Source: Candidatus Magasanikiibacteriota bacterium
GTDB lineage: Bacteria; Patescibacteriota; Patescibacteriia; Magasanikbacterales; GWA2-37-8
Direction of reading: 5' to 3'
Length of the DNA stretch: 61,634 nt
Assembly (NCBI GenBank): GCA_009694865.1
Contig: SICD01000002.1
Location: 1-61,634, forward strand
Every line of letters begins with the position of its first letter. The first letter of the stretch is position 1. Shown in pieces: positions 4,264-57,570 of the stretch. Under the pieces are notes generated by a model that had not been told where the DNA came from, made no database searches, and saw nothing but the letters and a program-made list of their open reading frames with translations. Both the position numbers and the translations under genes were made by a program.

Positions 4264-4271
4264 ATACAGCT

Positions 4272-4357
4272 GTCATTCTGAACGAAGCGGGGCGCAGTGA
4301 AGAATCTCTGTCTCAACTACCAAACGGACAGAGATCCTTCGCTGCGCTCAGGATGAC
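4272..4357. repeat. Family A inverted-repeat element
   Basis: GTCATTCTGAACGAAGC...GAAGAATCTCTGTC faces GACAGAGATCCTTCGCTGCGCTCAGGATGAC. It overlaps the last codons of rnpA. Confidence 0.7.
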
Positions 4358-4752: not shown

Positions 4753-4857
4753 TTGGTCTTTAAATTATACACTTTTGCTGTTTTTTTACAATAATAAGGA
4801 ATCTTCTCCGCTCGTTCCGACTCGCTACGAAGTGAATTTTCTCGCGAAAGAAAATTC

Positions 4858-4884
4858 AAACACAAAACCCGCCAACGGCGGGTC
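4858..4884 (-). terminator. Terminator/attenuator-like hairpin between rpmH and rnpA
   Basis: On the minus strand: GACCCGCC-GTT-GGCGGGT followed by TTTGTGTTTG. Confidence 0.4.
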
Positions 4885-4901
4885 TTTGGAAAAATTTGCA
4901 C

Positions 4902-5081
4902 CTAACTCTTAAAGCGGCGTAATTTACCGGTAATTTCATCGGACACGGTGAGCTTTTTGCGACCCTTGGCGCGACGGCGAGCGAGCACTGCTCGGCCTTG
5001 CTTGGTGCTCATGCGCTTCATAAATCCGTGGGAGCGAGCACGTTTACGTTTTTTTGGTTGATAGGTTCGTTTGGTTGACAT
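4902..5081 (-). CDS. rpmH: 50S ribosomal protein L34
   Basis: Hand translation gives [46 protein letters not shown]... (59 aa, below the ORF-track cut-off). Divergent from dnaA. Confidence 0.9.
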
Positions 5082-5183
5082 ACATCTAAATTATGGTATT
5101 TTATATAATAATGTATTATTTCAAAAGTAGCAAGAAGTATATAATATTAGAGTGAGTTTGTCAAGTTTAAATGTCAACAGGGT

Positions 5184-5214
5184 TTATTCACAGCTTATTC
5201 ACAGCTTATTCACT
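5184..5214 (+). promoter_or_regulatory. Three tandem DnaA-box-like 9-mers with 11-bp periodicity
   Basis: TTATTCACA, TTATTCACA and TTATTCACT start at 5184, 5195 and 5206. Each is a one-mismatch variant of TTATCCACA, about 90 bp upstream of dnaA. Confidence 0.6.
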
Positions 5215-5304
5215 TTTCTTTTGTTTTAGAACTGTGTTGCCACCCCCGCGCTTGTGTTATAATGAGCGAACGCTTTAAGGCAAAAAAGTATCTACCATTT
5301 AATT

Positions 5305-6696
5305 ATGCAGAATTACGAAATTTGGCAGGCCGTCCTTGGTGAATTAGAACTCTCTATTTCAAAAGCCAACTTCATTACATGGTTTAAAAACACTGGTATT
5401 ATTTCTTATCAAGAAGGTATGGTGGTTTTGTGCGTTCCTAATGCTTTTACCAAAGCCTGGATGGAAAAAAAATACCACCACACCATTATTACATCACTAG
5501 AACGCGTTACCGGCAAACCACTAAAGCGCGTGGAGTATAAAATTGAAAGTCTTAAAAATTTAGCAATTGAGCTGGTTATAACTAACAAGCCGCTGGAGGT
5601 GGCCTTACCGTCGTTTGCTGACCTAACACCAGCTGTACCTGTACAACTTTTCAATAATAATGGTGGTTTTACAGTAAATACTAAGTACCGTTTTGAAAAT
5701 TTTGTTGTCGGAAAAGGAAATGAGCTTGCCTATGCTGCGGCTCAGGCAGTGGTAAATCGACCGGGCACCGCTTATAATCCGTTGTTTATTTATGGCGGCG
5801 TTGGTCTTGGCAAAACGCACCTTATTCAAGCGGTAGGCAACGAATTGCGCAAAAATAATCCCGATATTTCCATTTTATACGTTAGCGCTGAAAAATTTTC
5901 CAACGATTTTATATCTTCAATTAGAGAAAAAACCGTTAAGGATTTTCAAAATCGCTACCGCACCATTGACCTTCTGCTCATTGATGATATCCAATTTATT
6001 GCTGGCAAGGAGGGCACCCAGGAATCGTTTTTCCATACCTTTAACGAGTTGCACCAACAAAATAAGCAGGTTATTCTGACGTCGGACCGGCCCCCCAAAG
6101 CTATCCCGGCCTTGGAAGATCGCTTAAAATCACGCTTTGAGTGGGGGATGATCGCGGATATCGCGGCGCCGGATTTTGAAACACGCGTGGCTATTTTAGA
6201 CCGTAAGTGTCAAGAAAAATTTTTTTTGTTGCCTGTGAAAATTTTGGAAAGCATTGCCACTTCGGTGCAAAGTAATATTCGCGAGTTAGAGGGGGCGCTT
6301 AACAAAATTATTGTGTATCACCAGCTTAAAAATCTGCCACCGAGCCTAGAATCGGTTAAAATGCTTTTGACGAGCTGGGCGGGCACCCCAGTGCGCCAAT
6401 CTTTGACCCCCCGCCAGCTTCTAGAGACGGTTAGCCAATTTTATTCTTTAAATGTTGAGGATATTATTAGTAAAAATCGTGAAAAAAAGATTTCTCTGCC
6501 GCGCCAGGTGATTATGTTTTTAATGCGTGAAGAACTTAAAATGTCTTACCCCGCGATTGGTGGTGAGTTGGGGGGTCGCGACCACACCACCGCGATGCAC
6601 GCCCACGAAAAAATTCGAAGAGAGTTGAACAACGACCTAAAATTAAAACAAGAGGTGGATTTAATTAAGCAAAGAGTCTATGTGAATAACTTGTAA
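5305..6696 (+). CDS. dnaA: Chromosomal replication initiator protein DnaA
   Basis: 463 aa with Walker A GGVGLGKTHL, LLIDDIQF, an AAA+ sensor region, and the C-terminal DNA-binding motif GGRDHTTAMHA. Confidence 0.97.
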   Translation: MQNYEIWQAVLGELELSISKANFITWFKNTGIISYQEGMVVLCVPNAFTKAWMEKKYHHTIITSLERVTGKPLKRVEYKIESLKNLAIELVITNKPLEVALPSFADLTPAVPVQLFNNNGGFTVNTKYRFENFVVGKGNELAYAAAQAVVNRPGTAYNPLFIYGGVGLGKTHLIQAVGNELRKNNPDISILYVSAEKFSNDFISSIREKTVKDFQNRYRTIDLLLIDDIQFIAGKEGTQESFFHTFNELHQQNKQVILTSDRPPKAIPALEDRLKSRFEWGMIADIAAPDFETRVAILDRKCQEKFFLLPVKILESIATSVQSNIRELEGALNKIIVYHQLKNLPPSLESVKMLLTSWAGTPVRQSLTPRQLLETVSQFYSLNVEDIISKNREKKISLPRQVIMFLMREELKMSYPAIGGELGGRDHTTAMHAHEKIRRELNNDLKLKQEVDLIKQRVYVNNL

Positions 6697-6954
6697 GTTA
6701 AGAGTGGATAAGCTTCCTGATTTACAGCTTTTTAATTAACACTCTATTCACGGTTTTTCCCCTGACACGAGACGAGGTGTGCATAAAAAAAATATTTAAA
6801 AATCTTTTCCACCGCGCGCCGTTTTTTCTCCACTTTTCGTAGCGCTTCTTTCCACTGTGTTTTTCTCTAAAACAAAACGTTTTTGCCACTTATCCAGTTC
6901 GCTCACACCCCTTATTACTATTATTAAAATATTTATATATAGTAAACAATAATT
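6681..6954. promoter_or_regulatory. Candidate oriC: DnaA-box cluster plus AT-rich unwinding segment
   Basis: TGTGAATAA (6681), AGTGGATAA (6703), CTATTCACG, TTTTCCACC, TTCTCCACT and TTATCCAGT, followed by an AT-rich tract from about 6914 to 6954 immediately before dnaN. Confidence 0.55.
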
Positions 6955-8082
6955 ATGAGGTTCTCGTGCACCAAGGAAAACTTATCCCTCGCCCTATCAC
7001 TCACTAGTGGTTTAACCGGGAAAAATAGCAACCTACCAATTCTGGGAAGTGTTTTGCTTAAAGCCGATCAGCAAAAAGTTGATGTGATCGCGACTAATTT
7101 AGAGCTGGCTATTGTAGTAAGTGTGCGCGCCAAAATTGACTTGCCGGGCACGTTTACAGTGCCTTCTCGAACCCTCGCTGAATTTGTAGCGCTTCTCCCA
7201 AACGAAAAAGTTGATGTGGAATTAGTGGGAAACGAGCTATTAATACATTGCGCAAAATCAACCACTAAAATTAAAGGCGGACCGGCCGACGAGTTTCCTA
7301 TTATTCCGACTCTCGAGGATGGAAAAGGTTTTTCGGTTGGCAGAAACGATCTTAAATCCGCTTTGTCCCAAGTGCTACCAGCAGTGGCTAAAAACGAAAT
7401 TAGGCCCGAGTTGGCCGGAGTGTTTTTTGGTTTTACCAGCGAAGCCGATGGTGGCAACAAACTTACGTTGGCCTCAACCGACAGCTACCGCTTGGCAGAG
7501 CGGGTGGTGCCGGTGACACAAGCCACCGAGGAGTGTCGGGTGGTAGTGCCTGGTCGCACCGCTCAGGAAATTAATCACTGTTTGCTGGCGAGCGGTGACC
7601 AAGGCGACCCAACGGTTAGCTTGATTTTAACAGACAATCAAATTTCCGTGCGCCACGAAGGGGTGCAAATTATTTCTCGTTTAGTTGAAGGTAATTATCC
7701 CGACTATGCTCAAATTATTCCCACCCAATTTAAAACCACCGCGGTTATCTCGGTTGATAAATTAAACAAAGAGCTTAAGGCGGCAGGAGTTTTTACTACA
7801 AGCGGTGTTAACGCGGCCACCCTGACTTTTAAGCCAACCACCGGGGTTGTAGAAATTACCTCCGCCTCACTTCAAACTGGCGATTATCATTCCGAATTCC
7901 CGGCCGAAATTACCGGCGCCGAAGTCACTGTTTTTCTTAATCACCGCTATGTGCTGGACGGTCTTAGCGCTGCCGGATCCGATACGGTTGAAATTAAAAT
8001 TGTTGACGGTGATAGTCCGTGCCTGATAACAGTGCCGGGAAATAATAATTTTCGTTACGTGGTGATGCCGATTCGGCAATAA
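6955..8082 (+). CDS. dnaN: DNA polymerase III beta subunit (sliding clamp)
   Basis: 375 aa in the canonical position after dnaA. It has a three-domain clamp-like sequence (LASTDSYRLAE, RLVEGNYPDY, MPIR C-terminus). Confidence 0.95.
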   Translation: MRFSCTKENLSLALSLTSGLTGKNSNLPILGSVLLKADQQKVDVIATNLELAIVVSVRAKIDLPGTFTVPSRTLAEFVALLPNEKVDVELVGNELLIHCAKSTTKIKGGPADEFPIIPTLEDGKGFSVGRNDLKSALSQVLPAVAKNEIRPELAGVFFGFTSEADGGNKLTLASTDSYRLAERVVPVTQATEECRVVVPGRTAQEINHCLLASGDQGDPTVSLILTDNQISVRHEGVQIISRLVEGNYPDYAQIIPTQFKTTAVISVDKLNKELKAAGVFTTSGVNAATLTFKPTTGVVEITSASLQTGDYHSEFPAEITGAEVTVFLNHRYVLDGLSAAGSDTVEIKIVDGDSPCLITVPGNNNFRYVVMPIRQ

Positions 8083-18391: not shown

Positions 18392-18550
18392 GTCATTCCG
18401 AGCGAGGCGCCGCAGCCGACGAGGGATCTCTGCCCGTCGTTTGTCATTCCGACCGGAGCGGAGGAATCTCGCGAACCGTTAACGAGATCTCTCGACTGCG
18501 CTCGAGATGACAGGTGAGTGAGCCAGAGATTCCTCCTTCGTCGGAATGAC
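18392..18550. repeat. Composite Family A element (four arms) in the nrdA leader
   Basis: GTCATTCCGAGCGAGG..., GTCATTCCGACCGGAGCGGAGGAATCTC, ...CGAGATGAC, and GTGAGCCAGAGATTCCTCCTTCGTCGGAATGAC. Confidence 0.7.
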
Positions 18551-20787: not shown

Positions 20788-22143
20788 TTAAGTTAGGGGG
20801 TTGCGGCGTTCGCCTGGAGGCTCACTCGCAATGACGCACGCAGCCAAAATCCAGAATAAAATCGCAAGATCGTTTTTAAAATAAGGCACATCAATTAGGC
20901 CATGTACTAAGAATACCACAAGAGCCGCCAAGAGACTAGCGCCGAGTATTTTATTGGAGTGTTTGTAAATCCTCCAGCCAATAGCCAATAGCCAATAGTA
21001 CATAGCGAAAAATGAGAGCATACCAATGAGGCCGATTTCCGTCCAGAAGTTGAGGAAGATGTTGTGGGGGTAGATGAGGCGTTCCATTTCGCGAACGTTA
21101 TAGTAAGGTTTTTGGATTTTGCGGAAAAATTGACCGATGCCGGCGCCGAAAACGAAATTTTTGGGAGATTTGCTTAGAAAGGTTTCGGTGTACGTCCAGA
21201 GGGTAAGGCGGTTAGCGGACGACTGCGATTTGTTTTGCAGAAGTCCTAAGCGATAAGTACTAAGCACTAAGCAAATACCAATAAAAACCCCGACCAAAGC
21301 GGTCTTTTTGCGTCCGATGAGAAAGAGAAAGAGCAACGTTCCGACAGCGACCGCAACGAGTGCGCCAAGGGATTTAGTGAGAAGGAGAGTGGCGACCGCC
21401 AAAAGCGTCATTACGAGGAGACCGAGGAACGAGGGCGACGTCGTAATCCCTTTGTTGTGGGAAGTTTGTAAGCTGGGGGATCGCGACGCTCGTACCTCGC
21501 TCGCGATGACGCCTAGTAGCAACATCACAATCGGTCCCAGGTAGAGCCCGACGGCATTGGGTGAGAGAAAAAAAGAAGTGACACGGTGGGTTTGGATGGC
21601 AATCCAGTCTACATTGCCAATGTGCCAGCCGGTGAAGTATTGGAGGATTCCGAAAATATTTATGCTCACGGTGGACAAGGCCAGAAACCAAATGAGGTCG
21701 GACGGGGTTAGCATTCCCCGCTTGGGCGGGGTAGGGGTGGGTGAGGATGCTTGCGGGGCGATTCGTCCCACCAACATCACAAACACCAACGTTGGTTCCA
21801 AAAAATACGCGCGCCATTGGCCAAGCGAGTAGTACCACATGTCGGAGATGAAGATGCTGGCGATTGAGGTTAGAAAAAAAAGAAGCAGGGAAATAAAGAA
21901 ATATTTGTGATTGGTGATTGTGGATTTAATATGCGGCCAGTCGGCGCGGGCGAATTTGATGATCCAGATTAAAAATAAAATTCCAAACATTACCTCTAGA
22001 ATAGTAGAGGGGAGCGGGCCAAGGCGGAGACGGATGAGATAGGCGGGGAGGGCAATAATAAATAAGCCCGTGGCGAGGCGGAAGTTGGTCCAGGCGAAGT
22101 GGGCGAAGGCCAGGCTGAAGAGGGTGAGTAACAAATAAGTCAT
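20788..22143 (-). CDS. O-antigen ligase (Wzy_C)-like polytopic membrane protein carrying an internal Family A repeat
   Basis: 451 aa with 10 or more TM segments and the Wzy_C-like motif YPHNIFLNFWTEIGLIGMLSF. The segment encoded by 21407-21510 is the repeat. Confidence 0.7.
   Translation of the reverse strand: MTYLLLTLFSLAFAHFAWTNFRLATGLFIIALPAYLIRLRLGPLPSTILEVMFGILFLIWIIKFARADWPHIKSTITNHKYFFISLLLFFLTSIASIFISDMWYYSLGQWRAYFLEPTLVFVMLVGRIAPQASSPTPTPPKRGMLTPSDLIWFLALSTVSINIFGILQYFTGWHIGNVDWIAIQTHRVTSFFLSPNAVGLYLGPIVMLLLGVIASEVRASRSPSLQTSHNKGITTSPSFLGLLVMTLLAVATLLLTKSLGALVAVAVGTLLFLFLIGRKKTALVGVFIGICLVLSTYRLGLLQNKSQSSANRLTLWTYTETFLSKSPKNFVFGAGIGQFFRKIQKPYYNVREMERLIYPHNIFLNFWTEIGLIGMLSFFAMYYWLLAIGWRIYKHSNKILGASLLAALVVFLVHGLIDVPYFKNDLAILFWILAACVIASEPPGERRNPLT
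21407..21510. repeat. Family A inverted-repeat element inside a CDS
   Basis: GTCATTACGAGGAGACCGAGGAACGAGGGCGACGTCGTAATCCC faces GGGATCGCGACGCTCGTACCTCGCTCGCGATGAC. It is read through as ...ASEVRASRSPSLQTSHNKGITTSPSFLGLLVMT... Confidence 0.65.
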
Positions 22144-23645: not shown

Positions 23646-23929
23646 CGTATGTATCGATTTATATGCATTGTGTTCGTCGCCATTCAACAGGAGGGTGCCG
23701 AAGGCCATTATGCAGAAGAGTGGGGGCGATTTCGCCTAACGTTCGCGTATAGCCAAAGTCGCGCCCCGATCTAAGTAATATATTACATCAATTAGAGAGG
23801 GTCCAGTCCATCCACTCAATTAATAAAATCCCCGCGCAATTTGGGCGAAAAAATGCTACCTTATAAAATATATACTCAAGCATTTTTGAGCTGGCTATAC
23901 GCTGTTAAGTGATGTTTGAACAAAAAATT

Positions 23930-24286
23930 TTATGTCAGCTCATTTATCATGACATCTAAAATTCTGTTTAGAATGTCTATATCATCTTGTGTAGAAAATC
24001 TGGACCAATCTCTTGTTGTCATATATTCATTAAATTCTTTTATCTTTGCCAGGGTAACAGGATTCGATATTATCCCTTGTTCAACTAATGCGTTGATTCG
24101 TGCTCTGACCCCGACAAAACAGCTGCCGCGGCATTTATATAATAGATAGTTCGGATCTACAGGCATTAATTTTTTAGGAGGTAGATCCTCTAAATAATCA
24201 TTTCTATATGCAACAAAAGCAGCAAGATATTTTTTCCTTGTCTCTAGAGATTGGACAAGATTTTCGATTCTATTTTCCGGTGTCAT
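23930..24286 (-). CDS. Hypothetical protein
   Basis: 118-aa ORF with AT-rich codon usage like the host genome. No motif recognised. Confidence 0.45.
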   Translation of the reverse strand: MTPENRIENLVQSLETRKKYLAAFVAYRNDYLEDLPPKKLMPVDPNYLLYKCRGSCFVGVRARINALVEQGIISNPVTLAKIKEFNEYMTTRDWSRFSTQDDIDILNRILDVMINELT

Positions 24287-24402
24287 AAAATTTTTTGGCC
24301 AAATTTCACTTAACTACTTATATACCAACTCATTAAAAGATTAGCTAAGGTATAATAAAATTTTTCATAAAAGGTGGTTATAGACTGGTGGTATATAAAA
24401 GT

Positions 24403-28584: not shown

Positions 28585-29607
28585 TTAGAGTGCCATTTTT
28601 TCTTTATACGTCTTCTCATACCTCTCCCCAAACTCCTCTTTCGTGAAACTGTGTTCCTGCGTGCCGTAGGTCTCAATCGCGTAACTCGCCGCTACACTGC
28701 CAATTTGGGCGCAGATTTTGAGGTGCAAGCCTTTTTCGTAGCCTACTAAAAAACCAGCCCGAAAGGCATCGCCGGCGCCGGTGGGGTCATCAACAGACTT
28801 TGGGGGGCAGGGGGCGACTTCAATTATCTCTCCGTCGCTCGTGCTAATAATGGAGCCTTTTTCTCCAAGCGTGGTGATGAGTGTTTTGGTTTCTTTTAAA
28901 ATATTTTGGGCATCCCAGCCGGTTTTATCTTGAATCAGTTTAATTTCATAGTCGTTGCCAATTAAAAACTGGCTTTGGCTAATGAGGTGTTTGAGTTCAA
29001 CGTCCGTAAACGCTGTGATTTGCTGGCCCGGGTCAAACATTACCGGAATCCCGCGGCTATGACACTCATTACTATGCTTAATCATGGCGCGTTTGTCGGT
29101 AGGAGCGATTATTGCGAGCGACACGCTCCCACCACCCCCCACGGCTGTGGCCGCCCCTCCTCGGGCAGGAGGGGACACCAGCGCCTCCCCTCCTTTCCAA
29201 GGAGGGGTAGGGGTGGTTGCCGACGCTATATCTGCCGTGTCGTTGAGTGGCCCGCTGTAAAACGCGGTTACTTGGTTGTCGTCCATATCGGTGGTGATGT
29301 AGGCGGAGGCGGAGAGTTTGGTGGCATCTTGAAAAATGTGGTCGGTGGCGATGTTAAATTTTTTAAAATGATCGAGGTAATCTTTGGCATCTCGTCCGAC
29401 GGCAGAAACGATGAGTGGGTCGGCGCCGAGCATTTTCATGGTATAGCCAATGTTGCCGGCCGTGCCGCCCCAACTTCTCTCAAGTTTATCCACCACAAAA
29501 CAGACGTTTAAGATGTGCAATTGTTCCGGCATGATGTGATTTTTAAAACTGTCCGGAAAATTCATGATGTAATCGTAGGCCAACGATCCTGATACTAAAA
29601 TGGACAT
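28585..29607 (-). CDS. PfkB-family sugar/nucleoside kinase (adenosine-kinase-like) carrying an internal Family B repeat
   Basis: PfkB signature DPTGAGDAFRAGF and N-terminal GG motif WGGTAGN. The roughly 30-aa Pro/Gly-rich insert is encoded by 29128-29219. Confidence 0.85.
   Translation of the reverse strand: MSILVSGSLAYDYIMNFPDSFKNHIMPEQLHILNVCFVVDKLERSWGGTAGNIGYTMKMLGADPLIVSAVGRDAKDYLDHFKKFNIATDHIFQDATKLSASAYITTDMDDNQVTAFYSGPLNDTADIASATTPTPPWKGGEALVSPPARGGAATAVGGGGSVSLAIIAPTDKRAMIKHSNECHSRGIPVMFDPGQQITAFTDVELKHLISQSQFLIGNDYEIKLIQDKTGWDAQNILKETKTLITTLGEKGSIISTSDGEIIEVAPCPPKSVDDPTGAGDAFRAGFLVGYEKGLHLKICAQIGSVAASYAIETYGTQEHSFTKEEFGERYEKTYKEKMAL
29128..29219. repeat. Family B element inside the pfkB-family CDS
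   Basis: CCACCACCCC...GGGGTGG outer stem with hairpins CCCCTCCT-CGGGC-AGGAGGGG and CCCCTCCTT-TCC-AAGGAGGGG. Translated as TTPTPPWKGGEALVSPPARGGAATAVGGGG. Confidence 0.65.
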
Positions 29608-33527: not shown

Positions 33528-34571
33528 TTAAACGCATTCTGTCCCGCAAAACACTCGCCCATTACTTTCATAACATTGCTCGCAACAAATAAAATGGGCG
33601 TTGCAGCTTTTAAGATTACAGTTGACGTAGTTTTCACTTGAGGCATTGCATTTGTCACAACGGCCGACGATTTCATGGGGCGTGGCGGGTGAGTTGAAGG
33701 CCATAGTAACGCGGCCGTCGAAAACGTAGAGTTTGCCTTTAAAATCTTCTTCGGGATATTTTTCCATGTAGGTAACGATGCCATTTTCCAGTTGGTACAC
33801 GTCGTTGAATCCATTTTGGAGAAGGAAGCCAGAGGCTTTTTCACAGCGCACGCCGCCGGTGCAAACCGTCACCACTGTTTTATTTTTAAGAGGCTCAAGA
33901 ATCGGTAAGATTTGAGACAAGTTGCGGAAATTTTTTAAGGGCGGCAGAATGGAATTTTGGAAAAAACCAATTTTGTGTTCGTAGTCGTTGCGCATGTCCA
34001 CAATATAAAATTCTTTTGGTTCACGAGAGATCAGACATTCCTCAATTCCCCCCTCGCAGGGGGGCACACGGGGGGTGTTGGTCGTTGGTTCGTTTGTTGT
34101 TGAGTGGTGAAGGCCGCCAACACCCCCCACGTCGCCCCCTTGCGAGGGGGGATTAGTAAAGCAGTTGTTACAGACCGTCTTGTTTGATCCATGAATCCAA
34201 CTATGTAGTTCTTCTGCTTTGATGTATTTCCCCGTTATTTGCGTTGGGTTTATATCGGCGTCGCCTAAGTGTCCGCTGACAATTTCTTTGCGTGCTTTAA
34301 TGGAGAGCCGAGGGAAAGCTTCTCCAGTACCCACACTTTTTTTGAAATCAATGTCCGCAAAGCGTAGGTCGAGCCGCGTCGCTTGAATATATTTTTCAGT
34401 ATCGTCTACCAAGCCTTCCACGGTTCCGTTAATGCCTTCTTCGGCAATAATAATACGGCCTTTAAGGTTGAGGCGTTCGCACAGCTCACGCTGAGTAGTG
34501 ACGAGTTCGGCTGGATTATTGATGTGGGTGTATTTGTAGTAGAGGAGAATTTGGAACATATTATGTGTCAT
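33528..34571 (-). CDS. trhO: Rhodanese-domain tRNA uridine(34) hydroxylase-like protein (UPF0176/YceA) carrying an internal Family B repeat
   Basis: N-terminus ILLYYKY...LKGRIIIAEEGINGTVEG, rhodanese active-site loop CTGGVRCEKAS, C-terminal Cys cluster. The insert is encoded by 34047-34151. Confidence 0.85.
   Translation of the reverse strand: MTHNMFQILLYYKYTHINNPAELVTTQRELCERLNLKGRIIIAEEGINGTVEGLVDDTEKYIQATRLDLRFADIDFKKSVGTGEAFPRLSIKARKEIVSGHLGDADINPTQITGKYIKAEELHSWIHGSNKTVCNNCFTNPPSQGGDVGGVGGLHHSTTNEPTTNTPRVPPCEGGIEECLISREPKEFYIVDMRNDYEHKIGFFQNSILPPLKNFRNLSQILPILEPLKNKTVVTVCTGGVRCEKASGFLLQNGFNDVYQLENGIVTYMEKYPEEDFKGKLYVFDGRVTMAFNSPATPHEIVGRCDKCNASSENYVNCNLKSCNAHFICCEQCYESNGRVFCGTECV
34047..34151. 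repeat. Family B element inside the trhO CDS (105 nt)
   Basis: CCCCCCT-CGC-AGGGGGG, a 12-bp stem GGGGGGTGTTGG/CCAACACCCCCC, and CCCCCT-TGCG-AGGGGG. Translated as NPPSQGGDVGGVGGLHHSTTNEPTTNTPRVPPCEGG. Confidence 0.65.
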
Positions 34572-37290: not shown

Positions 37291-37869
37291 TTATTGTAAT
37301 GGTGCCCAGCTCCAGGGCACATTAAAGGCCTCGCAGTGGATGGTGATAGCGTTATAATCGGTCAGGGTTAGATTGGCCGGGAGTTCGTAGGTTTGTTGGC
37401 CGGTGATGCTTTTGAGTTTGCCCAAATTCAATCCGGCTTTAATATCGGCGCGCGAACTCGGCGCGGTATTTTTGGTAAGATAGATTTGCAGATCCGGTCC
37501 GTTTGGAGTTTTAAAATCATCGCCCAGTACTACGTAATTTTTTCCGTCTTTAATCATTAGGCTCGCGTTTCCATCGGTCATGTAGTTAAGACGCGTAAAC
37601 TTTCCTGCTCGGGCCACGGCGCCAGTAAAATTTTTATCGGCCGTGACCCTAGCGGTCGGGACATTTGAGGCGGACGGATTATTTTTCATTGAGTCAACCA
37701 TTTTTTGGGTTGCGACTTCAACCGGGTCTTCGGCCGGCCCGGCAGTTGGTGATGGTGTGGCGGGGGCGGTTGGGACAGCCGTTGACGACGGGGCGGTTGG
37801 GGCGCTGGCGCAACCAGCGCCCAGGAACAGGAGGGCGGCGAGACTGAAAAGAGCGGTGCGAGTTTTCAT
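37291..37869 (-). CDS. DM13-domain lipoprotein
   Basis: Lipobox LFLGAGC, a Pro/Ala/Thr linker, and a DM13-like pattern GNASLMIKDGKNYVVLGDDFKTPNGPDLQIYL. Confidence 0.7.
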   Translation of the reverse strand: MKTRTALFSLAALLFLGAGCASAPTAPSSTAVPTAPATPSPTAGPAEDPVEVATQKMVDSMKNNPSASNVPTARVTADKNFTGAVARAGKFTRLNYMTDGNASLMIKDGKNYVVLGDDFKTPNGPDLQIYLTKNTAPSSRADIKAGLNLGKLKSITGQQTYELPANLTLTDYNAITIHCEAFNVPWSWAPLQ

Positions 37870-40625: not shown

Positions 40626-40744
40626 ACTGCTTGCTTATGTAGTTAAATTTTGTTATTGTTAGTCAATAGAATTGCTCGTATCATAGCAGAAATTGATTAG
40701 AATTACCAGATGTTCACATTATTACAGTGTTGGCTCTCAATCAA

Positions 40745-40799
40745 GGGGATTGCCACGCCTGCCTGCCGGTAGGCAGGTCGCTACGCTCCTCGCAATGAC
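40745..40799. repeat. Family A arm upstream of and overlapping the glycosyltransferase start
   Basis: The reverse complement reads GTCATTGCGAGGAGCGTAGCGACCTGCCTACCGGCAGGCAGGCGTGGCAATCCCC. Confidence 0.6.
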
Positions 40800-42114
40800 A
40801 CTTGTGCAGCCAAAAATTCTCATCCTCCACGACTATTTTTTGTATAAAGGCGGCGGGGAGCGGCTGGTGATTAGCCTTGCCAAAAATTTGGGAGCAGATG
40901 TAGCCACGGCGTTTATTGCCAAGGACGCGTTTGACCCGCGTGAGCACGGAATAAAGACGATTGAACTGTATAAAGAAAAACCCTGGTCGCGAGTGCCGGG
41001 GTTTAGGTATTTGCAGGTGCAGTTGTCGTTTTTGTTTAAGACGAAATTTGTACGGAATTATGATGTAGTGATTTATAGTGGGGATTGTTTGGTGGCGGTG
41101 ATAAGGGCGTTGGGGTGGCGTGGATTGTGGCGAACCAGCGAGACCTCTCCCCAACCCTCCCCCCTGCGGTGGGGAGGGGGGCCAATCACACCTCCTCCAC
41201 CGCAGGGGAGGAGGCAGGAGGAGGATTCACATCATCTACGCAACATCGCCTATATGCATTCACCGCCCAGGCATTTGTATGATTTGTACAAGGAACGACT
41301 GGCGGCCTATCCTTGGTGGAAGAAAATTATTTTTGTGCCGTTTGTTTGGTTTAACCGCTGGCGATTTGAGTGGTTGTGTCGGAAATTGGATACAATTGTA
41401 ACTAATTCGGAGAATACGCGTAAAAGAATACAGCAGTATTTGGGTTTAGACTCAGTGGTGGTGTATCCACCGTGCGATACGTTGGTGTTGAAGAATGGGA
41501 GCGAGACCTCTCCCCAACCCTCCCCCCTGCGGTGGGGAGGGGGGCCAATCACACCTCCTCCACCGCAGGGGAGGAGGCAGGAGGAGGACTCGTCACCGGT
41601 CCACCCTTATTTTTTCTCCTGGGCACGATTGTATGATGTTAAGCGCGTGCCAATGATTGTGGAGGCCTTTATTAAAATGCCGGATAAACAGTTGATAGTG
41701 GCATCGGGTGGCCCGGATTTAGAAAAAATCCAAAAAATGGCGGCAGGACATTCGAATATAAAAATTTTAGGTTGGATTAATGACGAGCAGTTGATTGAGT
41801 ATTTAGGGAAATGTTTGGCAACGATTTATATCCCGATGCAGGAAGATTTTGGTATGACGGCGGTGGAGAGTATGCAAGCGGGGAAGCCGGTGATTGGGGT
41901 GGCGGAGGGCGGGCTCCTTGAAATTATTGAAGATAATAAAAATGGATTGATGTTAGAATCAAATTTTACGGTGGATGATTTGTGCGCGGCGGTGCAGTCA
42001 CTTACGCCGGATCGAGCCAGTGTAATGGAGAGTGTGTGCGAAGAAACCGCAAAGAAATTTTCCGAAAAAAGTTTTATTGAGGGGATGAAGAAAGTGATTG
42101 AAGGTGTTTGTTGA
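40795..42114 (+). CDS. GT4-family glycosyltransferase carrying two identical internal Family B repeats
   Basis: Start trimmed to MTLVQPKILILHDYF. C-terminal GT1/GT4 pattern EDFGMTAVESMQAGKPVIG. Inserts lie at 41137-41225 and 41500-41588. Confidence 0.85.
   Translation: MTLVQPKILILHDYFLYKGGGERLVISLAKNLGADVATAFIAKDAFDPREHGIKTIELYKEKPWSRVPGFRYLQVQLSFLFKTKFVRNYDVVIYSGDCLVAVIRALGWRGLWRTSETSPQPSPLRWGGGPITPPPPQGRRQEEDSHHLRNIAYMHSPPRHLYDLYKERLAAYPWWKKIIFVPFVWFNRWRFEWLCRKLDTIVTNSENTRKRIQQYLGLDSVVVYPPCDTLVLKNGSETSPQPSPLRWGGGPITPPPPQGRRQEEDSSPVHPYFFSWARLYDVKRVPMIVEAFIKMPDKQLIVASGGPDLEKIQKMAAGHSNIKILGWINDEQLIEYLGKCLATIYIPMQEDFGMTAVESMQAGKPVIGVAEGGLLEIIEDNKNGLMLESNFTVDDLCAAVQSLTPDRASVMESVCEETAKKFSEKSFIEGMKKVIEGVC
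41137..41225. repeat. Family B element, copy 1 inside the glycosyltransferase CDS
   Basis: 89/89 nt identical to 41500-41588. Hairpins are CCCTCCCC-CCTGCGGT-GGGGAGGG and CCTCCTCC-ACCGCAGG-GGAGGAGG. Confidence 0.85.
41500..41588. repeat. Family B element, copy 2 inside the glycosyltransferase CDS
   Basis: Identical to copy 1, offset by 363 nt (same reading frame). Both encode SETSPQPSPLRWGGGPITPPPPQGRRQEEDS. Confidence 0.85.
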
Positions 42115-42251
42115 TACTTTTTGGTAGCAAAAAGTATCCAAAAAACCATTGGGGCGCCATAACTCCCGCCAAAGGCGGGCAGGCGCCTCTATCTCGGTGG
42201 CTCCTTGCCCCGTCGAATGACGGGGGAACAAGGCCGCCCCCAAACCCCCAG
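42113..42251 (+). repeat. Family C structured repeat, copy 1
   Basis: GATACTTTTTGGTAGCAAAAAGTATC hairpin + CAAAAAACCATTGGGGCGCC...variable...AACAAGGCCGCCCCCAAACCCCCAG. Overlaps the glycosyltransferase stop codon. Confidence 0.7.
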
Positions 42252-42273
42252 ATGTGCGCGAATTAAATTTATT

Positions 42274-43614
42274 ATGACAATGCGAAAGCTTGTTTCTGTA
42301 TTATTTATCATTCTAATGATTGGGTTATTTGGAACTCATTTTTTTGTTGTTCCAGCGCGGGCAGATGACACGGGGGCGACGCAGCAGCAATTGGAACAGC
42401 AGCTCCAAGATATTGAAAAGCAGATTTTGGTTTTAGAAAAACAGCTGGCAACTACCGCGAGCCAAAAGAAAACGCTGGCGAGTCAGATTAAAAAATTGCA
42501 GACCAAGCAAGACCAGTTGCGGCTTCAGATTAAGGCGACTAATTTAAAACTCAATAAAATTGCTAAAAATATTGCTGTTACCGAAGTGGCAGTTGCGTCA
42601 ACACGCGCGACGATTCAGGATCAACAGCGCCAAGTGGCGGTGTTTCTACGGCTAATGAACCAGCAGGATGAAACGCCATGGTTAGTGCTCATAACCGAAG
42701 CGGGGGGTCTTAATAAAATTTTTACTGAAATTCAAAATTATATTATTATCTCGTCGGAGCTCGGGCGTTTAACCAAAGCTGCCAAGACAAGCCAAGTTAA
42801 ATTGGAGGGACAAGTCGCGAGTTTAACTGACGCGAAGAACGATACAACGGAACTATTGCAAATAAAAATCGTGCAACAGGCGGCGCTGGGTGGTCAGCTC
42901 ACGGAGCAGAGTGATTTGCTGGTTGAAACCAAAGGCAAAGAGAGCAATTTTCAATCCCTGCTCACAGATAGCAGGAAAGCCGCTGCCGAAATTCGCGGAC
43001 GCATTTATGAGCTATTTGGCACCACCAAGAATATTGATTTTGGCCAGGCCGTGGCAATTGCGGAATTTGTGGCGGCAAAAACTGGTATTAGACCGGCGTT
43101 TCTTTTGGCGATTCTTACACAGGAGTCGAATCTTGGTAAAAATGTAGGTACATGTAACCGAATTGGAGATCCGCCTGAGAAAAGTTGGAAAGTTGTTATG
43201 AAACCGGAGCGCGACCAGGAACCGTTTTTAAAAATTACCCAGGATTTAGGTTTGGACACGGATACGACTCCAGTCTCATGTCCGCTAAAAGATAAAAAAG
43301 GGAAGCAATTTGGGTGGGGCGGGGCGATGGGGCCGGCTCAGTTTATTCCGTCTACGTGGATGGGGTACACGGCGAAAGTGAGCGCGCTCACGGGGAAGAC
43401 GCCAGCCAACCCGTGGGATATTCGTGACGCGTTTGCGGCGTCAGCGATAAAGTTAACTCATGATGGAGCGGACGGTACCAGCGAGGGGGAGTGGAAGGCG
43501 GCGATGAAGTATTTTTCTGGCTCAACCAATACGCGGTATCGGTTTTATGGCGATAATGTCCTCACAATTGCGGAGGGGTATGAAAAAGATATACAAGCAT
43601 TGAAGAATCAGTGA
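42274..43614 (+). CDS. Secreted coiled-coil protein with C-terminal lytic-transglycosylase-like domain
   Basis: Start trimmed out of the repeat to MTMRKLVSVLF (signal/TM). Long Gln/Leu coiled coil, and a C-terminus AILTQESNLGKNVGTC...GAMGPAQFIPSTW. Confidence 0.7.
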   Translation: MTMRKLVSVLFIILMIGLFGTHFFVVPARADDTGATQQQLEQQLQDIEKQILVLEKQLATTASQKKTLASQIKKLQTKQDQLRLQIKATNLKLNKIAKNIAVTEVAVASTRATIQDQQRQVAVFLRLMNQQDETPWLVLITEAGGLNKIFTEIQNYIIISSELGRLTKAAKTSQVKLEGQVASLTDAKNDTTELLQIKIVQQAALGGQLTEQSDLLVETKGKESNFQSLLTDSRKAAAEIRGRIYELFGTTKNIDFGQAVAIAEFVAAKTGIRPAFLLAILTQESNLGKNVGTCNRIGDPPEKSWKVVMKPERDQEPFLKITQDLGLDTDTTPVSCPLKDKKGKQFGWGGAMGPAQFIPSTWMGYTAKVSALTGKTPANPWDIRDAFAASAIKLTHDGADGTSEGEWKAAMKYFSGSTNTRYRFYGDNVLTIAEGYEKDIQALKNQ

Positions 43615-43625
43615 CGATAGTGGCT

Positions 43626-43745
43626 GATACTTTTTTGATGGCAAAAAAGTATCCAAAAAACCATTGGGGGCGGCTAACTCGCTTCAGGAATATCTTTTCA
43701 CCGCGTGTTGAGTTAGCTCAAACAAGGCCGCCCCCAAACCCCCAG
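43626..43745 (+). repeat. Family C structured repeat, copy 2
   Basis: GATACTTTTTTGATGGCAAAAAAGTATC + CAAAAAACCATTGGGGGCGGCTAACTC...GAGTTAGCTCAAACAAGGCCGCCCCCAAACCCCCAG. Confidence 0.7.
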
Positions 43746-43784
43746 GGTGGCGTGGACAAAGTTTTTAGAAAGTGACAGTGATTA

Positions 43785-44357: not shown

Positions 44358-44750
44358 TTATTGATGTCGGGGGTGGGCATCTGGGTACAGGAGTGGCTCC
44401 TCTTTTTCTCCAATTGTGTCTACCCCCGGGTAAGTATCGTTTTCTCCAAGTAAATCATCACGCCGTGCACGCATCGCGCTGGTGCGCTCATTTTCTTGTG
44501 CTCGTTTATTTAATTCACGCAGCTCCTCCCGTTCAGCCAGTTCAGTCCGTAGTTGTTGTATAGCCACTTTAAAATAAGCATTGTTTCGTTTTTCAACATA
44601 ATTTGGTTCGCCGCGTTTACCATAAAATTTTTCCAGCGCTTTTCCGACGGAAAATTGTAACGTGTAACCACTGTCAACCCACGTTAAGGCTTCAGCAACT
44701 ATTTTGTTGATTATGACGGTTTCTAAGCCGTTGCGTTTTGGTAGTGTCAT
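44358..44750 (-). CDS. Hypothetical protein
   Basis: 130-aa ORF overlapping the upstream gene by 4 nt. No motif recognised. Confidence 0.5.
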   Translation of the reverse strand: MTLPKRNGLETVIINKIVAEALTWVDSGYTLQFSVGKALEKFYGKRGEPNYVEKRNNAYFKVAIQQLRTELAEREELRELNKRAQENERTSAMRARRDDLLGENDTYPGVDTIGEKEEPLLYPDAHPRHQ

Positions 44751-45580
44751 AGTGGGCGGGCGTTTATATAATGGCGCCGTTCTTTTTTGTTTAATTTTTC
44801 AATCGCGTATCGCAACATCGTGCGGGGCATGGTTGGATGATGTTGATTGAGAAATTTTTTCAGTAGGGGTGTATTGCCATACGCCAGCATTTCGCGTTTG
44901 CCAACTTCACGGAGCATCCAGCCGGTGGCTTTGTGAATTAAATCATGTTTGTCGTTAAGAAGCAAGGTGGCGAGGTGAATGGTTTCTTTGAAACGATTGG
45001 CGCGGATGAAGGCGAAGGTGGCGACGATGGCGATGCGGCGTTCCCAGAGGTTTGGGGAGCGGGCGAGGGTGGTGAGAAGAGCCAGCCGTGACTGAACCCC
45101 CCTCTCTGTCTCCCCCCTTATAGGGGGGAGAGGAATACGTTTGCCCTCCCCTATAAGGGGAGGGACGGAGGGTGGGGTTTTCGTTTCGCGTTCATCGTTC
45201 ACAAGATATTCCCCCACAATCTGCGAGGCGGATGCGTCCACTAAATCCCAATTATTAACGCGTTTGGCATTTTTGAGGTAGAAAGAAAATATTTTTTTCT
45301 TTTGAGATCCAGTACCTGTTTGAAATTGATGTACCAAGATGACGAGCGCGATGAAACGTCCCTCATGAATTTTTGATTTGAGTAGTTTTTGGATGTCGGG
45401 GAGGGGTAGAGTATAAAAATTTTTAGCAATTTTTCTTCGTTCGGGCACGGTGAGACCTAAAAATTTGTCGCCTTCGCCGTATTCGCCATGGCCGGTTTTG
45501 TAAAATCCACTGTATATTTTGGCTTTAGCGGGGTTGGCGTGGGAGTGGAGGATTTTTTTGAGTTGGGATAATGTCGGCAT
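44747..45580 (-). CDS. DNA alkylation repair (AlkD-like HEAT-repeat) protein carrying an internal Family B repeat
   Basis: Start trimmed out of a Family A arm to MPTLSQLKK. Motif VNNWDLVDASASQIVGEYL. The insert is encoded by 45095-45179. Confidence 0.8.
   Translation of the reverse strand: MPTLSQLKKILHSHANPAKAKIYSGFYKTGHGEYGEGDKFLGLTVPERRKIAKNFYTLPLPDIQKLLKSKIHEGRFIALVILVHQFQTGTGSQKKKIFSFYLKNAKRVNNWDLVDASASQIVGEYLVNDERETKTPPSVPPLIGEGKRIPLPPIRGETERGVQSRLALLTTLARSPNLWERRIAIVATFAFIRANRFKETIHLATLLLNDKHDLIHKATGWMLREVGKREMLAYGNTPLLKKFLNQHHPTMPRTMLRYAIEKLNKKERRHYINARPL
45095..45179. repeat. Family B element inside the alkD-like CDS
   Basis: Hairpins TCTCCCCCC-TTATA-GGGGGGAGA and CCCTCCCC-TATAA-GGGGAGGG within an AACCCC...GGGGTT outer stem. 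Translated as TPPSVPPLIGEGKRIPLPPIRGETERG. Confidence 0.65.
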
Positions 45581-45587
45581 ACATATA

Positions 45588-45623
45588 GTGAGCCAGAGAT
45601 TCCTCCTGCGACGTCGGAATGAC
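45588..45623. repeat. Family A arm
   Basis: GTGAGCCAGAGATTCCTCCTGCGACGTCGGAATGAC, nearly identical to the arm at 18517-18550. Confidence 0.65.
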
Positions 45624-45628
45624 AATGT

Positions 45629-53217: not shown

Positions 53218-53437
53218 CAAATTTCTAAGTACCTAATATCTAATTTCTAATAAAATGTCAAAGGCACGACTGTCATTCCGACCGAGCGTCACAGCGAGTG
53301 GAGGAATCCCTTGACCCCTGCGACTCAATGGTCAAGCGATTTCTCGACTTCGTCCCGAGCGACTCTGGACTACGCTCGAAATGACAACTGGACATTGGGA
53401 ATTATATTAGAAATTAGGAATTAGAATTTAGAAATTT
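53218..53437. repeat. Roughly 220-bp composite palindrome (AT-rich outer arms enclosing a Family A element) between ribA and ribD
   Basis: AAATTTCTAA...CTAATTTCTAATA...ATGTC faces GACAT...TATTAGAAATTAG...TTAGAAATTT. The core at 53272-53385 is GTCATTCCGACCGAGCG...CGCTCGAAATGAC. Confidence 0.65.
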
Positions 53438-57210: not shown

Positions 57211-57267
57211 TTTCCCCCTCGCGGGGGATCACCCGAGCTGTGGCTCTGGCGAGAGGGTGACAAGACT
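57207..57267. repeat. 61-nt direct repeat, copy 1 (anticodon-loop flanks plus 48-nt GC-rich Family-B-like insert)
   Basis: AGTTTTTCCCCCTCGCGGGGGATCACCCGAGCTGTGGCTCTGGCGAGAGGGTGACAAGACT, 60/61 identical to 57458-57518. Confidence 0.8.
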
Positions 57268-57278
57268 TACCACTACAG

Positions 57279-57363
57279 CGGAGAGGGTGAGATTCGAACT
57301 CACGGTACCTTGCGGTACGACAGTTTTCAAGACTGTTGGTTTCAACCGCTCACCCACCTCTCC
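57279..57363 (-). tRNA. tRNA-Ser (anticodon UGA), intact
   Basis: GGAGAGGTGGGTGAGCGGTTGAAACC..., anticodon arm ACAGT-CTTGAAA-ACTGT, long variable arm CGTACCGCAAGGTACCG, T-arm GTGAGTTCGAATCTCAC. Confidence 0.88.
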
Positions 57364-57457: not shown

Positions 57458-57518
57458 AGTTTTTCCCCCTCGCGGGGGATCACCCGAGCTGCGGCTCTGG
57501 CGAGAGGGTGACAAGACT
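57458..57518. repeat. 61-nt direct repeat, copy 2
   Basis: Same sequence as 57207-57267 with one C/T difference. Confidence 0.8.
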
Positions 57519-57570
57519 GTTGGTTTAAACCGCTCACCCACCTCTCCGCTCTCGCGATAAATTTAATTTT
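57512..57570 (-). pseudogene. 5' half of the interrupted tRNA-Ser(UGA)-like gene plus duplicated upstream flank
   Basis: CAAGACTGTTGGTTTAAACCGCTCACCCACCTCTCC + GCTCTCGCGATAAATTTAATTTT, compared with the intact ...TTTCAACCGC...GCTCTCGTGATAAATTTTAATTTT. Confidence 0.6.

Follow-up and report, generated by a model that had tools for sequence, protein, structure and literature searches.

The gene considered here encodes a GT4 glycosyltransferase of GT-B fold (positions 40795-42114, + strand, 439 aa; Pfam and fold searches) and belongs to the window, i.e. the whole stretch of DNA that was analysed (61.6 kb). The listed ORF (40693-42114) begins at an upstream TTG (40693) found within another repeat; the true start of the glycosyltransferase is likely the ATG at 40795. 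The assignment to the GT4 enzymes, made at first from the letters alone, is borne out by the Pfam matches (Glycos_transf_1, Glyco_trans_1_4 and Glyco_transf_4) and by PDB fold matches to MshA and BshA. Homologues of the protein (676) are chiefly from Patescibacteria/Magasanikbacteria, and the source organism is a Magasanikbacteria-like Patescibacterium. The E-x7-E motif is present (residues 350-358), the two-Rossmann GT-B fold is intact in the AlphaFold (AF2) prediction (mean pLDDT 88), and the dN/dS value of the gene against its orthologues is 0.08-0.11.

Two blocks of 93 nt (31 codons each) are repeated in this gene, both on the + strand: copy 1 at site 1 (41137-41229) and copy 2 at site 2 (41500-41592, with the end ...GGACTCG). 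The first-pass annotation had described 41137-41225 and 41500-41588 as identical over 89/89 nt, 363 nt apart and in the same frame of one gene. The repeat finder recovered this identity (41137-41228 = 41500-41591, 92 nt with 1 mismatch, spacing 363 nt) and a single ORF (40693-42114) does contain both copies; only the extent had to be revised, since the codon-wise block is of 93 nt, with two differences between the copies (GAT/GAC and TCA/TCG), both synonymous and both located at the 3' ends. The encoded peptide is the same, SETSPQPSPLRWGGGPITPPPPQGRRQEEDS, and the tryptic peptides expected from the inserts are TSETSPQPSPLR, NGSETSPQPSPLR and WGGGPITPPPPQGR. The GC content of the element is, as had been remarked, above that of its surroundings (69.6% versus 45.2% for the remaining gene). 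Its cores (24 nt and 25 nt) were found at two places only in the window, for a chance expectation of 0.00; there is no further copy within these 61.6 kb, and the exact variant is known from the two copies only.

Two REP-like units in inverted orientation (a doublet) make up the element, a unit being a conserved 5' tail (CGAGACCTCTCCCC) with a G/C hairpin of 8-10 bp after it. In copy 1, the core of which runs from 41139 (CGAGACC...) to 41229, the left unit hairpin is at 41155-41178 (CCCTCCCC-CCTGCGGT-GGGGAGGG) and the right one at 41191-41214 (CCTCCTCC-ACCGCAGG-GGAGGAGG), both on the + strand; their counterparts in copy 2 are at 41518-41541 and 41554-41577. Alignment of the element with its own reverse complement revealed that the right hairpin repeats the left unit in inverted orientation. 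The element has inverted repeats at its termini (CGAGACCTCTCC / GGAGAGGTCTCG, 11-13 nt), the pair of copy 2 (CGAGACCTC / GAGGACTCG) being better than that of copy 1. The two 8-bp stems per copy, with loops that are the reverse complement of each other, are as originally described, and the alternative long fold then suggested is even the minimum-free-energy structure: one long hairpin of -61.3 kcal/mol as RNA (z = -5.7; 0 of 200 shuffled sequences folded equally well).

Site 1 is in the N-terminal Rossmann domain, after helix 101-111 and before strand 149-154, and site 2 is in the linker joining both Rossmann domains. The confidence of the AF2 model drops only in the two inserts (pLDDT 44-64, and >90 elsewhere), which are without secondary structure: residues ~112-148 for site 1 (49-64) and ~230-270 for site 2 (44-55). 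The first reading had envisaged loop positions for both segments, and the model likewise predicts that they are disordered loops on an intact GT-B fold.

Orthologues were aligned (20, later 85) and the two sites were surveyed in 120 of them, 102 being scorable. Site 1 was in its basal state of 13 residues, without insert, in 74 of these 102, and site 2 in its basal state of 12 residues in 89. Both segments are thus lineage-specific insertions of a repeated element, absent from most orthologues. P0003, tied with P0002 as the closest relative (82% insert-masked identity), has neither insert. Both sites are also empty in L016, where the flanks have diverged (dS >1) so that the insertion junctions given by this comparison are not nucleotide-precise. 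Several lineages have different hairpin elements at the same two sites; in L001 and L002 (independent assemblies) the site-1 inserts are related to the window element and align with it, with termini and first loop in common. For the clade (P0005,(P0004,(P0002,(P0001,P0003)))), both sites are occupied by differing families or empty, the gain-and-loss tree being a neighbour-joining one based on 363 columns and given without support values. A low dN/dS (0.05-0.13) persists between orthologue pairs which both carry inserts. As the same two positions are reused, target preference could contribute beside selection.

These comparisons also bear on the soundness of the assembly. Perfect identity over 89 nt is about the size of short-read k-mers, and repeats of this sort do interrupt the contigs of related genomes; both points would suit a metagenome repeat mis-threaded into the gene, or the duplication of one real copy. 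Against this, the copies are in frame, they have unique flanks, their 3' ends differ at two bases, and they occupy positions where independent orthologue assemblies also have hairpin elements. Two in-frame insertions at exactly both tolerant loops are not easily made by an assembler, and an artefact is hardly credible. The near-identity of the copies fits the earlier suggestion of a recent insertion, or gene conversion, by an active element; that the element is active is probable.

The range of the family was determined with a DNA pattern made of the tail and the first hairpin, a scan which is blind to reading frames. Members were found in nine further loci, eight of them on contigs of Magasanikbacteria MAGs, four of which bear wrong record titles, and the family is present in at least 10 loci overall. 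L014 hints that relatives of the family may exist in the Ktedonobacterales. A stricter pattern, in which the two stems were fixed and the loops left free, gave no match in the GTDB representative genomes. The concatenated peptides from the open frames of the element recovered no entry of a 5.8-billion-protein database, the protein of the window included, sequences of this kind probably being discarded by the composition filters of HMMER. Members occur as doublets and as single units, single half-units being common. Of nine distinct scanned copies, seven are genic, one is intergenic and one is unclear. The genic hosts are CopA, a Mur ligase, GyrB, Sua5, DJ-1/PfpI, a PHP-like gene and a ComF-like gene; in all seven the host frame is open through the copy, and the insert lies within or next to Pfam domains. 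The genic copies are in both orientations and represent all six reading frames. Core lengths (88-91 nt) are not multiples of three; all junctions are nevertheless in frame. Alignment of 20 units gave a 10-bp stem in which six pairs are changed on both sides, with 90% of the cells paired, a level reached by none of 500 shuffles. The stems are therefore maintained by compensatory change, and conservation tracks base pairing, not codons.

The frame data bear on what becomes of the element after transcription. The first-pass annotation had left room for its removal at the RNA level; more generally, it could be removed post-transcriptionally or skipped by the ribosome, as in the programmed bypass of T4 gene 60 or of the yeast mitochondrial byp elements, and the enzyme would then lack the 31 residues. 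The very high stability of the hairpin (-61 kcal/mol) and the conservation of structure rather than peptide would suit such a mechanism, as would the likeness of GC-rich hairpin inserts in an AT-richer gene to byp elements. However, without translation about two thirds of the insertions are expected out of frame or with stops, while the seven genic copies, found irrespective of frame, and the two present here are all open and free of stop codons, in all six frames ((1/3)^7, i.e. ~5e-4, for the seven). Selection yields this pattern only if the elements are translated, so the open frame of all seven genic copies argues for translation. The codons on either side of the element are not a matched take-off/landing pair, the putative take-off site is not followed by a stop, and both differences between the copies are synonymous. 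A search of Rfam at a permissive threshold gave no match at gathering score, and hence no intron or ribozyme; there were only miRNA-precursor look-alikes (generic hairpins) far below threshold. An intein was also considered and rejected (31 residues are too few and splice-junction motifs are absent). Removal at the RNA level is unsupported, and removal or bypass of any kind is very improbable. Translation of the insert is what the frame statistics and the analogy with Rickettsia (see below) point to.

A translated insert need not be selfish DNA: the segments could be adaptive, as flexible Pro/Gly linkers, interaction loops or mRNA features (RNase sites, or sites of ribosome pausing at domain boundaries). 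The location of site 2, exactly in the GT-B inter-domain linker, the reuse of the same two positions in many lineages and the synonymous nature of both inter-copy differences are in keeping with this. Yet the insert peptides found at one site are unrelated across lineages, being derived from different DNA families and frames, and most orthologues, together with one of the two closest relatives, do without inserts. The same DNA units are found in unrelated genes, in six frames, and also between genes, and it is base pairing that is conserved, not codons. An adaptive origin is, on this evidence, unlikely.

At least three other genes of the window contain in-frame hairpin elements, all on the - strand. 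A differing GC-rich double-hairpin element (29116-29242) lies in a PfkB-family kinase gene (28585-29607) and encodes ...SATTPTPPWKGGEALVSPPARGGAATAVGGGGSVS...; a tails-in inverted doublet (CCCCCCTCGCAGGGGGG + GGGGGGTGT tail; 34036-34166) lies in a UPF0176/rhodanese gene (33528-34571); and another double-hairpin element (45085-45190), encoding ...ETKTPPSVPPLIGEGKRIPLPPIRGETERGVQS..., lies in a DNA-alkylation-repair gene (44750-45625), the Pfam match of which it breaks in two. A GC-rich segment at 37731-37822 was rejected as an element: it belongs to a DM13 lipoprotein-like gene and encodes an N-terminal linker rich in Ala and Pro. The genome-wide and clade-wide character of the habit, with the same two loops struck repeatedly by different families, had been overlooked at first.

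No target-site duplication flanks any of seven doublets, which argues against a cut-and-paste DDE transposase, and no conserved target motif is common to the 5' flanks of 11 copies. A classical MITE, the deletion derivative of an insertion sequence moved by such a transposase, would also be small and present in many copies, with terminal inverted repeats (11-13 nt here). Such an origin is improbable, given the lack of duplication at the seven doublets, the frequency of single half-units and the absence of a DDE transposase among the 65 ORFs of the window. Moreover, the gene located between units of these families is not a transposase but a DUF559 gene (Vsr-like PD-(D/E)xK endonuclease).

At three loci of related genomes (L003, L011 and L017) the DUF559 gene stands between inverted units. 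These brackets, scored with gaps and with the left unit of L003 falling inside the called ORF, reach 48-60 for a shuffled maximum of 20-22. The median score of 135 ordinary ORFs is 16, and values of at least 35 are found in three unrelated ORFs only; a high score by chance is seen for the housekeeping gene NusG. The search for DUF559 homologues was shallow (five hits) and two added loci, one without units (L020) and one with the upstream unit only (L021), lowered the proportion of full bracketing from 3/3 to 3/5 readable cases, two loci being cut by contig ends. The DUF559 domain of L011 forms an in-frame insertion within Sua5/TsaC, an essential gene. The termini of the element in the rhodanese gene of the window are those of the L003 DUF559 bracket, around an interior of 44 nt versus ~396 nt. 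Tails point inward in the gene-carrying arrangement and outward in the glycosyltransferase element, so an extra step is needed to link DUF559 to the latter. tblastn and Pfam annotation of the 65 window ORFs gave no DUF559, transposase or RAYT gene; the sole small nuclease gene is of the GIY-YIG type and has no bracketing units. Because it is the gene bracketed by inverted units of these families, the DUF559 endonuclease is the best candidate for mobilising the element, although a tentative one that we would expect to fail more often than not.

We propose that the blocks belong to a mobile palindromic element which is translated in frame as a tolerated loop, a reading to which we give a probability of about 0.78. 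Both would derive from a mobile element that is small and non-autonomous and, as a nested palindrome (imperfect, ~91 nt), is able to extrude as one long hairpin; the family is found in Magasanikbacteria-type Patescibacteria. As these genomes have little intergenic space, many insertions would fall within genes, and those that survive would be the ones preserving the reading frame and located in loops where additional residues are tolerated. The element would be transcribed and translated with the gene to give a disordered loop rich in Pro, Gly, Ser and Arg, leaving the enzyme functional; the conserved feature would be the nucleic-acid hairpin, with the peptide as a by-product. The near-identity of the copies would mean that, very recently, one came from the other or both came from one master, or that gene conversion maintains their likeness. 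As for movement, we infer a REPIN-like route based on the hairpin, on single strands or on nuclease and repair.

Should DUF559 be involved, the doublets would spread without target-site duplication, and the same permissive loops would see them repeatedly arrive, give way to others and disappear precisely, with a continual remodelling of surface loops across the small CPR proteome. It is conceivable, if doubtful, that a partnership not described so far operates in Patescibacteria, in which DUF559 genes are the autonomous members and REPIN-like doublets of 90-130 nt, the two of this glycosyltransferase among them, their non-autonomous derivatives, remodelling surface loops.

To our knowledge, in-frame palindromic repeats have so far been regarded as a peculiarity almost confined to Rickettsia. 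What would be new here is a protein-coding-palindrome habit resembling that one in a new bacterial group and with a new element family. A case in Patescibacteria, with an unrelated GC-rich REPIN-like family, would point to an independent origin in genomes that are small and packed with genes, and in which mobile DNA finds hardly any landing place outside them. Such inserts may inflate protein families and split them up, lead alignments and structure predictions astray and interrupt CPR metagenome assemblies; recognising them should improve annotation. The repeated strikes at two loops would also amount to a natural map of the tolerance of the GT-B fold for 30-60 extra residues. The DUF559 association, if true, would provide a function for a very large domain of unknown function and a second enzyme class in the REP/REPIN model.

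Several known systems can be compared with the element. The yeast mitochondrial GC clusters and byp elements are GC-rich, hairpin-forming mobile inserts in AT-richer coding sequence. The ribosome skips byp elements and their frame need not match, whereas all copies of the present element keep an open frame in phase with the host gene, pointing to translation. The known Vsr-like homing endonucleases are encoded in introns, inteins or phage genes, and their homing is directed at cognate alleles that are empty; we know of no dispersed hairpin-repeat brackets or short non-autonomous derivatives associated with them. Reportedly they are those of the EDxHD or I-Bth0305I type treated by Dassa et al. 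in 2009 and Taylor et al. in 2011. The likeness is that of a small Vsr-fold nuclease gene acting as selfish DNA, as may be seen in L011, within Sua5/TsaC. IS200/IS605-derived elements insert 3' of a fixed tetra- or pentanucleotide, without target-site duplication; such duplications are absent here too, but the 5' flanks of the 11 copies have no motif in common, and no IS200/IS605 TnpA was seen in the window.

With REPINs, i.e. REP sequences associated with RAYT transposases (Bertels and Rainey 2011; PMC3337134, PMC3116915), the element has in common two inverted REP-like imperfect palindromes which, with a spacer, form a long hairpin, the presence of singlets alongside doublets, two doublet configurations, a single-copy enzyme gene flanked by units and no evident target-site duplication. 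REPs and REPINs are, however, overwhelmingly extragenic, while the present elements are mostly intragenic and in frame (seven of the nine scanned copies and both window copies). The flanked gene is here a DUF559 Vsr-like PD-(D/E)xK endonuclease, not an HUH/Y1 RAYT, and no RAYT (HUH/Y1 transposase) was found among the 65 window ORFs.

The other comparison is with the Rickettsia palindromic elements (RPEs; Ogata et al. 2000, 2002), short palindromes of 100-150 bp (PMC1779305) found between genes and in frame in unrelated housekeeping genes, the ORFs of which remain intact (PMC10969869, PMC1779305); reportedly, the peptide encoded by each RPE family is conserved (PMC10969869). Among the features tested, the likeness includes a dispersed hairpin-forming repeat, in-frame location in unrelated intact ORFs and insert positions compatible with the fold (loops, by AF2). 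To these may be added lineage-specific proliferation of families and the lack of a known transposase of their own. The differences are a length of ~91 nt, a GC-rich composition (70%, versus 45% in the rest of the gene), the inverted REP-like doublet structure, the occurrence of units also as singlets, the use of six frames, and a host from another phylum, the Patescibacteria here being free-living or episymbiotic. The window element, found in a Patescibacterium, is thus at most an analogue of the RPEs and not a member of them.

In the GT4 glycosyltransferase gene (hereafter GT), the repeat finder aligned 41137-41228 with 41500-41591 over 92 nt (363 nt apart, 1 mismatch), and the first 89 nt of both copies are identical, as the first-pass annotation had reported. 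Codon-wise, the shared block is of 93 nt (31 codons), and the copies differ solely at GAT/GAC and TCA/TCG, both synonymous. A single ORF (40693-42114) holds the two copies, each encoding SETSPQPSPLRWGGGPITPPPPQGRRQEEDS; the true start is most likely ATG 40795, giving 439 residues. Because this ATG lies within a GC-rich repeat overlapping the start of the gene (40741-40800, …GCCTGCCTGCCGGTAGGCAGGTCGCTACGCTCCTCGCAATGAC), that repeat may provide the translation start or interfere with it. The GC excess noted earlier was found again (69.6% in the element versus 45.2% in the remaining gene; 46% in the window), as were the two 8-bp stems with reverse-complementary loops. The alternative long fold that had been suggested, in which the two halves of the element pair with each other, is the minimum-free-energy structure (-61.3 kcal/mol as RNA, z = -5.7), and alignment of the element with its own reverse complement revealed an imperfect nested palindrome of ~78 nt. 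Five of the six reading frames are open in the element. Its 24- and 25-nt hairpin cores have no further occurrence in the window (0.00 expected by chance). The initial observation is real and non-random.

The GT product matches the Pfam families Glycos_transf_1, Glyco_trans_1_4 and Glyco_transf_4, and 676 homologues were found at E <= 1e-5, the named ones being Patescibacteria, mainly Magasanikbacteria. The AlphaFold model (85 orthologues as input; mean pLDDT 88, pTM 0.85) resembles solved retaining GT4 enzymes, e.g. MshA and BshA, and the E-x7-E motif (residues 350-358) is intact. The dN/dS values were 0.08-0.11 against four orthologues, and equally low for pairs of orthologues both carrying inserts. 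From the intact motif, the fold match and the low dN/dS, we concluded that the gene is functional and no decaying pseudogene.

Whether the two segments are insertions at loop positions could be answered positively: most of 102 scorable homologues lack both, and the model shows disordered loops there. The basal 13 residues of site 1 (lying between SGDC... and NIAYMH; copy 1, 41137-41229) are found in 74 of the 102, and the basal 12 residues of site 2 (lying between YPPC... and YFFSW; copy 2, 41500-41592) in 89. In the remaining ones, exactly these sites hold insertions of at least eight to ten kinds that are unrelated to one another. In the model, just two stretches combine a low pLDDT (44-64) with a lack of secondary structure, residues ~112-148 and ~230-270. 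These are the insert regions, and the second lies in the linker that joins the two Rossmann domains. Each insert examined in four orthologous loci (L001-L004) is a strong nested hairpin at the DNA level. The family with termini CGAGACCTCTCC...GGAGAGGTCTCG occupies both GT sites of the window and site 1 of L001 and L002; another, with termini GTCATTCCGAGCGAGG...CTCGGAATGAC, occupies site 2 of L001, L003 and L004 and site 1 of L003, and has 8 matches in the window versus 0.36 expected (spans 4271-4358, 18392-18550, 53272-53385, 20820-20835 and 21495-21510). The orthologue P0003 (82% identity to GT, inserts masked) has clean empty sites and is tied with the insert-bearing P0002 as closest relative. 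Across the clade (P0005,(P0004,(P0002,(P0001,P0003)))), given by a neighbour-joining tree without support values, both sites carry differing families or are empty, which points to inserts having been gained, replaced and precisely lost.

Aligned with the inserts at site 1 of L001 and L002, the window element gives 73% mean column identity; the first loop, CTGC(G/A)G, is common to all three, as are the termini. A search pattern made of the tail and first hairpin retrieved eight more distinct Magasanikbacteria loci (nine matches, L012 and L015 being the same gene) and one look-alike in a Ktedonobacterales (Chloroflexota) MAG (L014:191-235, GGAGACCTCTCCCCCTACCCCCTCCCCGCTGCGGGGAGGGG); the range of this family (or of one resembling it by convergence) may include more than Patescibacteria. 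Four of the element contigs (L007, L008, L011 and L012) have record titles reading 'uncultured Gammaproteobacteria'; L007 and L011 share assembly CAZHNI01 with the contig encoding the GT orthologue P0004, and these labels are probably wrong. The copies are either single units (a tail plus a hairpin) of ~42-45 nt or inverted doublets, whose length from CGAG to CTCG is 88-91 nt. The hairpin is CCCTCTCCTC-TGCG-GAGGAGAGGG in α units and CCTCTCCTT-TGCRA-AAGGAGAGG in β units; doublets consist of α and inverted β, save the window element, which has an α-type loop in both halves. In 20 units compared, pairing in the 10-bp stem amounts to 90% and six pairs are altered on both sides, values reached by none of 500 shuffles: what the units conserve is therefore their hairpin. 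No target-site duplication was found at any doublet flank examined, and no conserved target motif is common to the 5' flanks of the copies.

The DNA scan, which ignored reading frames, gave nine distinct copies: one is intergenic, one unclear and seven lie in long ORFs. Six of the seven have hosts identified by Pfam (a CopA-type P-type ATPase, a Mur ligase, GyrB, Sua5/TsaC, a DJ-1/PfpI protein and a ComF-like phosphoribosyltransferase) and one lies in a PHP-like protein without Pfam match. The host frame is open across the element in all seven, and in five the insert falls within or beside Pfam domains; among the seven, each of the six frames and either orientation is represented (peptides ETSP..., RDLSP..., ARPLP..., ...GGEVS, ...GERSR and ...GRGLD). 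As core lengths are not divisible by three, the surviving junctions must have been filtered for frame, which argues that the insert is translated, since no such filter would operate otherwise. The first-pass annotation had also considered removal at the RNA level; were the element spliced or bypassed, the chance of seven in-frame copies out of seven would be ~5e-4. Moreover, Rfam revealed no intron, ribozyme or other known RNA family in the element, and the codons flanking the GT inserts include no matched take-off and landing codons and no following stop. On these grounds we consider removal highly improbable. The other proposal, an active mobile element tolerated as a protein loop, is well supported by the loop-site insertions and the in-frame copies in unrelated genes.

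In-frame hairpin insertion is a general habit of this genome. When 100-nt sites of the window were ranked by hairpin strength, six of the top eleven fell in long open frames. Insertions account for five of the six: the two GT copies, and GC-rich double-hairpin elements different from them in the PfkB kinase gene (29116-29242), the UPF0176/rhodanese gene (34036-34166) and a DNA-alkylation-repair gene (~45085-45190), where the Pfam match is cut in two. The sixth site, 37731-37822, was rejected as an element, being an Ala/Pro-rich N-terminal linker.

A few other features of the window deserve mention. Several shorter GC-rich pieces are present in a Wzy-like gene (20788-22143). An AT-rich 118-aa ORF without Pfam or PADLOC match (23930-24286, minus strand) has an imperfect inverted repeat of ~40 nt on its flanks, and the region 23895-24325 may be a small mobile cassette. 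Just downstream of GT, an SLT-like gene (42277-43614) sits between direct repeats (42112-42270 and 43625-43764) of a ~150-nt composite intergenic sequence, made of an AT-rich palindrome and GC-rich hairpins ending AACAAGGCCGCCCCCAAACCCCCAG. A 57-nt GC-rich repeat (TTTCCCCCTCGCGGGGGATCACCCGAGCTG...; 57211-57267 and 57461-57525) lies on both sides of tRNA-Ser(tga) (57278-57363). The region 4000-8082, with yidD and rnpA (4000-4752, minus strand), dnaA (5305-6696) and dnaN (6955-8082), is likely the replication-origin neighbourhood.

None of the window's 65 ORFs is a transposase, RAYT or DUF559 gene (DUF559 being a Vsr-like PD-(D/E)xK endonuclease domain). In relatives, DUF559 genes are bracketed by inverted units (hairpin-tail...tail-hairpin), with flank alignment scores of 60 (L017), 48 (L003) and 48 (L011) versus shuffled maxima of 20-22; 135 ordinary ORFs scored alike gave a median of 16 and a 95th percentile of 25, and three unrelated ones, one of them NusG, reached 35. 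Bracketing was complete in three of five readable cases (L020 has no units, L021 the upstream one only), a small and heterogeneous sample. At L003:4690-5180 and L017:2950-3405, free-standing genes lie between highly similar inverted hairpin-plus-tail units. In L011, the domain (~7170-7542) is in frame inside a Sua5/TsaC gene (6735-7886), with an inverted β unit on one side and a forward α unit on the other, of the CGAGACCTCTCC family as in GT; it has the appearance of a selfish nuclease gene lodged in an essential one. The L017 and L019 tails end ...TCTCGAT, the terminus kind of the GT family, and the contigs of L018, L019 and also L017 stop at most ~40 nt from the gene, which is what assembly breakage at a repeat would produce. 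The rhodanese-gene element and the L003 bracket have the same hairpin and tail around interiors of 44 nt and ~396 nt, respectively, the relationship expected of a non-autonomous element and its gene-carrying parent. The bracketed DUF559 gene would be that parent and the short doublets its non-autonomous, REPIN-like derivatives, a tentative reading to which we give well under an even chance.

Full-text searches turned up no account of such elements in Patescibacteria (candidate phyla radiation), nor of a link between DUF559 and repeats, and these bacteria go unmentioned in a 2024 MITE review. Most worth following up are the DUF559 association and the repeated targeting of the same GT loops. As to known systems, the family differs from REPs in lying mostly within genes and from classical MITEs in showing no target-site duplication at its doublets. 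Architecturally it comes nearest to the REPIN (PMC3337134, PMC3116915): RAYT-REPIN systems have two doublet configurations and repeats on either side of an enzyme gene (PMC3337134), and the DUF559 arrangement likewise has an enzyme gene between repeats, but the enzyme class would differ. As a functional analogue, likened by its described habit, the Rickettsia palindromic element comes closest: this palindromic repeat lies in frame in many housekeeping genes at fold-compatible positions (PMC10969869, PMC1779305).
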